This document shows, piece by piece, positions 58,336 through 59,004 of a stretch of 64,000 nucleotides of DNA. A program made the translations under genes and the position numbers. The number at the start of each line of letters is the position of its first letter. Positions within the stretch are counted from its first letter, which is position 1. The stretch comes from Escherichia coli O127:H6 str. E2348/69 (GTDB lineage: Bacteria; Pseudomonadota; Gammaproteobacteria; Enterobacterales; Enterobacteriaceae): assembly GCF_000026545.1 (NCBI RefSeq), contig NC_011601.1; one strand, written 5' to 3'. The notes under the pieces were generated by a model that worked only from the letters and a program-made list of their open reading frames with translations, had not been told where the DNA came from and searched no databases.

Positions 58336-58421
58336 TTTTTTTGCGCTGACTTCAGTTATTTAACAGAACAGTGCCTGGTAGTAACAACTATAATTTACCA
58401 AGACAAATAAGTAAGAAAAAC

Positions 58422-58457
58422 TCAGACACGCTCATACTTGAGTCGTGTCTTTTTTAT
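58422..58457 (+). terminator. Rho-independent terminator of zinT
   Basis: agacacg…cgtgtct stem followed by tttttt. Confidence 0.6.
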
Positions 58458-59004
58458 TATGTCTGTAGAAAAAAACCGAGAAAAAGGCGAACGATAAATA
58501 CACAACTCAGCTATACAGACTGGCAGCGCAAATGTCTCCAGGAGCAAGTCATCTATCATGGTAAAGCTAACCAGAAATATAGGTTAATTTTTGTGTTTAA
58601 ACCTTTTTTACTTGTTAGTATGATACAAAGGCTTTCAAAAAAGCTGGGAAATTCAACAACTCTTGGAAATTATGGACTTTGTCCCGCGGCTTTAATCTGA
58701 CGGCCGCGCTCCTTTTTTGGCTCAATTATTGACCCCTTCTCTACGCAACTTCAGTTCCCGCCAGCAACTTTGCGGCAGTTTCATAGGATCAATGTCTAAA
58801 AGAATAATGGTGACCGATAAGAAAACGACTGAATAACTGTAGATTTTCGCTCGAAACCTTCCTGTCAGACCCATAGCGAATCAAGTGCTGAATGTCACAG
58901 TATCGAACAGAAAACAGTGACGATCTAACCCTTCAAGAATATCCTACGATTGTTCTGTTTAGGAAAAGCAAGGCGGGAAGTCAGGAGATAAGTCATTGAT
59001 AAAG

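Follow-up and report, generated by a model that had tools for sequence, protein, structure and literature searches.

The window analysed here is a stretch of 64,000 nucleotides from Escherichia coli O127:H6 str. E2348/69. Window position x corresponds to position x + 2,080,000 of NC_011601, a conversion that follows from an EPEC annotation published as supplementary material, which places zinT (yodA) at 2,137,685-2,138,335. The genes around the region of interest are arranged in the order msrP, msrQ (56793-57428), zinT, serU, mtfA (59188-59985) and asnT (60086-60161). The interval between zinT and serU (58336-59004) is non-coding, measures 669 bp and carries no RefSeq features. The corresponding interval of E. 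coli K-12 MG1655 has 1,442 bases and encloses yodB (b1974), annotated as "putative cytochrome b561". The two loci are otherwise alike, with msrPQ, zinT, serU, mtfA and asnT also flanking the K-12 locus (b1973-b1975). An Rfam scan of 57400-59400 with E-values up to 1 returned only tRNA, a REP-like match and chance matches. The REP-like match is a palindromic element at 57451-57492, between msrQ and zinT, with a weak similarity to naRNA4 (29 bits, below the gathering score). The positions of the features discussed below are collected in Table 1.

Table 1. Features of the zinT-serU region of E. coli E2348/69 (window positions)
Feature	Position	Strand	Basis
zinT (yodA), coding sequence	57685..58335	+	ORF list, RefSeq annotation, alignment with K-12
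Tract specific to the yodB-less allele, 222 bp	58336..58557		blastn, global alignment, genome counts
109-aa ORF, chance open frame	58371..58700	+	ORF list; no Pfam match; not annotated
Intrinsic zinT terminator, 11-bp stem with one bulge (58424-58434 / 58439-58450), then U5	58424..58455	+	Folding
Block common to the yodB-plus and yodB-less alleles, 447 bp	58558..59004		blastn, 447/447 aligned, 95.1% vs K-12
Putative sigma-70 promoter-like site, TTTAAA-17 nt-TATGAT	58596..58624	+	Consensus scan, 9/12 matches
Module flanked by 8-bp direct repeats CCTTTTTT (58602-58609, 58711-58718)	58602..58718		E. albertii alignment, sequence
Second terminator, 7-bp stem CGCGGCU/GGCCGCG (58685-58708), 10-nt loop, CUCC, T6 (58713-58718)	58685..58718	+	Fold; Term-seq in K-12
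serU, tRNA-Ser(CGA), right-hand anchor	59005..59094	-	ARAGORN, Rfam tRNA (57 bits), RefSeq

An earlier sequence-only reading of this DNA had noted that yodB lies between zinT and serU in K-12 and is missing here, and both statements were borne out. The K-12 annotation has b1974 at this site, and the E2348/69 interval is empty in RefSeq. A tblastn search with K-12 YodB (word size 2, E up to 100) gave no YodB-like coding sequence in the 64-kb window; the best hit, with an E-value of 0.12, lies outside the interval and is a chance match. None of the ORFs of the interval matched Pfam, including PF01292, the YodB/cytochrome b561 family, and neither tblastn nor blastn detected yodB remnants in the interval or the rest of the window. 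For the remainder of the E2348/69 genome, the nearly complementary genome counts given below suggest that yodB is absent as well. The earlier reading had listed, as the only contents of the interval, the zinT terminator and one more hairpin with a T-run on the plus strand; both elements are present. The 109-aa ORF that runs through the zinT terminator had been dismissed as a gene, and we agree. Compared with the phylogroup F strain IAI39 it carries 17 substitutions that are distributed 7/6/4 over the codon positions, without third-position bias, and change 14 amino acids; the frame is open in IAI39 too. The ORF has no Pfam match and is not called by PGAP.

Pairwise alignment with the K-12 zinT-yodB-serU region showed that the two sequences are homologous exactly up to the zinT stop codon and again from 58558 onwards, with the yodB tract present in K-12 only. 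Between these breakpoints the alleles differ by replacement: 222 bp in E2348/69 stand against 995 unrelated bp with yodB in K-12. A blastn search with the K-12 interval gave only two matches, the shared 447-bp block, which includes the second hairpin, and 30 nt at the zinT terminator hairpin (26/30 identical, E 0.01). Global alignment of the 222-bp tract with the 5'-most 342 bp of the K-12 tract gave a z-score of 2.6. A deletion scar would be a subset of the K-12 sequence with a single junction, but the 222 bp have no K-12 counterpart except for the 30-nt hairpin. Because the 222 bp are not contained in the 995 bp of K-12, a simple deletion from a K-12-like ancestor cannot yield the sequence found in E2348/69. 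This bears on the explanation first offered for the locus, according to which the ancestor had the arrangement zinT-yodB-serU and a deletion in the E2348/69 lineage took yodB and left an orphan terminator. The position of yodB in K-12 agrees with such a history; the 222-bp sequence, which no deletion of the K-12 arrangement produces, and the lack of any yodB remnant in tblastn searches disagree with it. Taking these points together with the outgroup and population data below, we regard a deletion as very improbable.

The zinT terminator is an energetically stable structure (-15.3 kcal/mol, z -4.05, with none of 200 shuffled sequences equally stable) and U5 follows directly after the stem, as in a genuine Rho-independent terminator. 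Only two differences between E2348/69 and IAI39 fall within it, one in the loop (58436) and one in the bulge (58443). K-12 has a similar hairpin at equal distance from the zinT stop codon (positions 1617-1650 of the extracted K-12 locus). This counterpart is also stable (-17.7 kcal/mol), but the sequence behind it is UAUAUUAAUAAG and not a U-run; transcription of zinT may therefore continue in the direction of yodB in strains that carry this gene. An automated promoter and terminator scan missed both hairpins of the interval, owing to the bulge in the zinT terminator and the long loop in the second hairpin.

The distribution of the two alleles was determined in a population sample of 5,426 complete E. 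coli genomes. The 222-bp tract is present in 2,271 of these (about 42%) with 92.8-100% identity, and the entire yodB-less interval in 2,281. The K-12 yodB tract is found in 3,114 genomes, nearly all at 95% identity or more, with few matches at 80-95%, and the two sets are essentially complementary. The shared block occurs in 5,420 of the 5,426 genomes. Carriers of the yodB-less allele include the B2 strains E2348/69 and ST131, the phylogroup F strain IAI39 and others; the yodB allele is carried by K-12, O157:H7 and others. The yodB tract of O157:H7 is 98.4% identical to that of K-12, and the two most divergent-looking chromosomal YodB variants that were examined are frameshifted copies with 97.5-97.8% DNA identity. 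In ST410, clones have been told apart in qPCR competition assays by the presence or absence of yodB, the yodB-negative clone carrying fyuA (PMC10786849). The zinT-serU locus is thus an ordinary gene-content dimorphism of E. coli that is already known and exploited.

The zinT-serU interval of IAI39 also measures 669 bp, and its 222-bp tract aligns to that of E2348/69 without gaps, with 14 differing sites (6.3%; 93.7% identity). The flanks are less diverged, by 1.5% in zinT and 2.0% in the shared block. The higher divergence of the tract than of its flanks indicates an old, vertically inherited neutral spacer that is present in at least two deep phylogroups. A tract that has already diverged by 6% between B2 and F strains is a further argument against a deletion in the E2348/69 lineage.

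The polarity of the change was examined by comparison with other Enterobacteriaceae. A ZinT-anchored scan with one genome per species gave 80 loci. YodB adjoins zinT only in E. coli sequences, two contaminated MAG contigs included, and none of the 78 loci from other enterobacterial species shows the zinT-yodB linkage. In Escherichia albertii the gene order is msrQ-zinT-serU-mtfA without yodB, and YodB is absent from all six genomes that were inspected, five of them by tblastn. In E. albertii the sequence that follows zinT aligns collinearly to the 222-bp tract. The terminator hairpin is part of the aligned stretch, as are blocks such as CAGCGCAAA and CAGGA.CAAGT.ATCT. Global alignment of the 222-bp tract with the E. 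albertii spacer gave a z-score of 13.5 against shuffled sequences, whereas the E. albertii spacer aligned to the same 342 bp of K-12 with a z-score of 2.8. In the five further E. albertii genomes, the similarity to E2348/69 begins 34 nt further left than the similarity to K-12. The tract has diverged by approximately 35% between the two species, which in our judgement is what is expected for neutral sequence and which counts against recent exchange.

Since the 222-bp tract is homologous to the spacer of a yodB-free outgroup, the yodB-less form appears to be the older one. The claim that yodB was deleted from the E2348/69 lineage is contradicted here a second time, as the 222 bp are orthologous to a spacer that has no yodB. 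We consider it likely that the E2348/69 interval represents the ancestral Escherichia zinT-serU spacer, which never contained yodB, and that the K-12 tract is a later replacement; the direction of the event would then be a gain in the K-12-type lineage. According to this scheme, the yodB-less allele would have kept approximately 222 bp of neutrally drifting spacer together with the zinT terminator. In the K-12/O157:H7-type allele this tract would have been replaced by approximately 995 bp carrying yodB and its own upstream region, and the cassette would have landed upstream of a terminator common to both alleles. The polarity rests on E. albertii as the one informative outgroup species, with E. 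fergusonii and the cryptic clades outside the sample. ZinT protein clusters, searched for more outgroups, yielded no names besides E. coli, Shigella and E. albertii. Escherichia sp. MOD1-EC7003 is uninformative on polarity because the whole spacer is deleted up to the equivalent of window position ~58859, to which its zinT stop codon is directly joined.

The serU-proximal part of the interval evolves differently from the rest. The approximately 130 bp at the 3' end of serU (58875-59004) match E. albertii at 84-92% identity and persist in MOD1-EC7003, whereas the remaining spacer is about 65% identical. This segment may be conserved for a role in tRNA 3' processing or in termination, or as a site where elements that integrate at serU attach. 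Folding of the remainder of the shared block showed no unusual RNA structure on either strand (z +0.07 to +1.45). The site itself is a hot spot: integrase-led islands are located at the 3' end of serU in MOD1-EC7003 (positions 4657-6207 of the extracted locus L003) and in two of the E. albertii genomes (L096 and L098). Such islands, found in some E. albertii strains, set this locus apart from that of E2348/69.

The second hairpin had been interpreted as what is left of the yodB 3' end after a deletion. As a predicted structure it is unremarkable (z -1.2, with 26 of 200 shuffled sequences as good), and it is weaker than a canonical terminator, with a T-run 4 nt away from the stem and a loop of 10 nt. 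A Term-seq study of K-12 (Adams et al. 2021, PMC7815308, supplementary file 1), however, recorded a 3' end classed as "orphan" on the plus strand at 2,043,181. Two of the three condition tables list it, with about 2,241 and 1,864 reads, and the flanking sequence is given there. This position corresponds exactly to window position 58718, the last T of the T6 run. The K-12 counterpart of the second hairpin thus belongs to the orphan 3' ends at Rho-independent terminators described in that work (PMC7815308), and its sequence is kept in E2348/69. The hairpin lies inside the shared block; in K-12, the stop codon of yodB precedes it by 283 nt. Of the 5,426 genomes, 5,417 contain the surrounding 141 nt with at least 95% identity. 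Neither stem nor T-run has a substitution among E2348/69, IAI39 and K-12. Its location in the shared block, its near-universal presence and the mapped K-12 3' end argue that the hairpin is a conserved terminator and not a deletion scar; it probably works in E2348/69 as it does in K-12. Genome annotators could enter it as such, the RNA 3' end having been mapped in K-12.

A connection of the hairpin with yodB is nevertheless plausible at the level of function. Hfq RIL-seq of K-12 yielded yodB.serU.IGR:::arcZ chimeras covering 2,042,810-2,043,160 (+) in three libraries (PMC10954441). As this range starts inside yodB, the second hairpin most likely terminates a long yodB 3' UTR in K-12. The original suggestion that the hairpin belongs to yodB is therefore reasonable, in K-12, for the transcripts that it probably ends, as indicated by Term-seq and by RIL-seq fragments running from inside yodB to 2,043,160, but fails for the hairpin as a remnant, since the structure is common to both alleles. 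The link to yodB transcripts is also compatible with a deletion, as is the situation in E. albertii. In contrast to E2348/69, E. albertii lacks the second-terminator module: it has one copy of CCTTTTTT (L004, ~4925-4935), and the approximately 110 nt between the repeats, including the -10 hexamer of the promoter-like site and the second hairpin, are absent. The module could thus in principle have come with yodB, although the prophage yodB cassettes described below do not include it. The difference at CCTTTTTT can be explained either by repeat-mediated loss in E. albertii or by gain in E. coli.

The segment 58596-58718 might alternatively be a free-standing, unannotated small-RNA gene of ~89 nt that has its own promoter, is independent of yodB, occurs in both alleles and throughout E. 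coli, and binds Hfq and ArcZ. A transcript predicted from the promoter-like site would start near 58630 and end, after about 89 nt, at the mapped "orphan" 3' end, which in K-12 falls exactly on the T-run. The promoter-like hexamers and the hairpin with T6 are invariant in E2348/69, IAI39 and K-12, the module occurs in the same 5,417 of 5,426 genomes, and the ArcZ chimeras involve the intergenic region. Other observations fit such a gene poorly. No Rfam match was found in 58560-58860 at E-values up to 1, the 93-nt RNA folds with a z-score of only -0.7, and this AT-rich region holds hardly more promoter-like sites than chance would give (7 found against 4.5 expected). The start of the RIL-seq range inside yodB points to a long yodB 3' UTR instead, and the EPEC RIL-seq tables that were searched show no zinT/yodA intergenic chimera. 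Duplexes predicted between ArcZ and the K-12 and E2348/69 RNAs were no better than those with shuffled sequence. Conservation of the segment is not clearly above that of the adjacent spacer: 3 of its 123 nt are variable, compared with 13 of 286. A small-RNA gene is accordingly unlikely; if it existed, the K-12 yodB cassette would merely have landed upstream and borrowed the terminator of the module. The promoter-like/terminator module is the only loose thread at this locus that is worth a bench test.

Regarding the source of the K-12 tract, the nearest relatives of YodB outside E. coli are 72-77% identical. Two of these proteins were looked up, together with a 61% identical homolog from E. coli, and all are encoded in prophages. 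The prophage genes are on the opposite strand, with the holin/lysozyme lysis cassette on one side and the HNH/terminase genes on the other, where phage cargo genes are usually located. YodB-like cargo recurs in enterobacterial prophages and was seen in Citrobacter, E. coli and metagenomes (L083-L085, L089-L091, L105-L106). In one prophage group the DNA similarity to K-12 includes 88 nt upstream of the yodB start codon. Similar to K-12 yodB at 61-77% protein identity, these cytochrome b561 cargo genes differ from it in lying amid lysis and terminase genes and not at zinT; the window contains none of them. A Salmonella homolog (65%) is chromosomal and has an unrelated context. A phage collection, searched with the K-12 yodB tract and the YodB protein, yielded nothing beyond distant Acinetobacter matches and a flank from the record of a phage integrated at serU. 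The K-12 tract has the marks of an acquired cassette in that close relatives are on mobile elements, its distribution is patchy (3,114/5,426) and it is absent from E. albertii. Its base composition is not atypical, with a GC content (41.5%) similar to that of the neighbouring zinT (38.7%), and there are no repeats at its junctions. These data support the derivation of K-12 yodB from a mobile cassette. GC content (37.4% for the 222-bp tract) was discarded as an indicator of foreign DNA, since AT-richness extends over the zinT-serU region as a whole.

The left part of the K-12 tract raises the question of how the replacement took place. Instead of a plain insertion, the tract could be a divergent homologous haplotype that was introgressed from a relative with a zinT-yodB arrangement, with crossovers in zinT and near 58560-58600. 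Retention of a zinT-terminator-like hairpin at the same offset (the 26/30 match), together with a z-score of 4.7 for the first 140 nt, speaks for such an import. Without the hairpin the left arm is only weakly similar (z 2.3, and 0.8 against E. albertii). At the right junction, eight differences between E2348/69 and K-12 are clustered at 58565-58595, within the first ~40 nt of the 447-bp block, and form a patch of about 20% divergence. IAI39 shares six of them, those at 58565-58580. In a four-way alignment of 58565-58580, K-12 is nearer to E. albertii than the B2/F allele is, and the agreement of K-12 with E. albertii at several of these sites implies that the yodB-less allele carries derived states there. 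No integrase, IS element or flanking repeats were found at the junctions of the K-12 tract, which is also compatible with homologous exchange. The retained hairpin and the cluster of differences make import of a diverged haplotype a live alternative, and part of the K-12 tract may be a very diverged or imported homolog. Introgression is nonetheless unlikely: a donor with zinT-yodB linkage is missing from the 78 other enterobacterial loci, and the nearest relatives of yodB that were examined are carried as cargo by prophages, in different surroundings.

Replacement of an ancestral yodB-free spacer, which we prefer, would mean that K-12 is not the ancestral reference at zinT-serU, and that describing yodB as "missing" reverses the likely direction of the event. 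For wider biology this carries little weight, yodB being an uncharacterised accessory cytochrome b561 paralogue whose presence or absence is ordinary pangenome variation.

Two further observations concern the asnT side of the locus. In IAI39 (L094, 1-13091) a yersiniabactin island is located at asnT, approximately 1 kb from the yodB-less spacer. The yodB-less allele and the island may have been transferred together by recombination, which would fit the occurrence of fyuA in the yodB-negative ST410 clone. In E2348/69 the sequence following asnT (~60466-61360) contains a frameshifted and truncated RefSeq pseudogene, 'invasin domain 3', at a position where K-12 has the 7-kb adhesin gene yeeJ; yeeJ appears to be reduced to a fragment in this strain.
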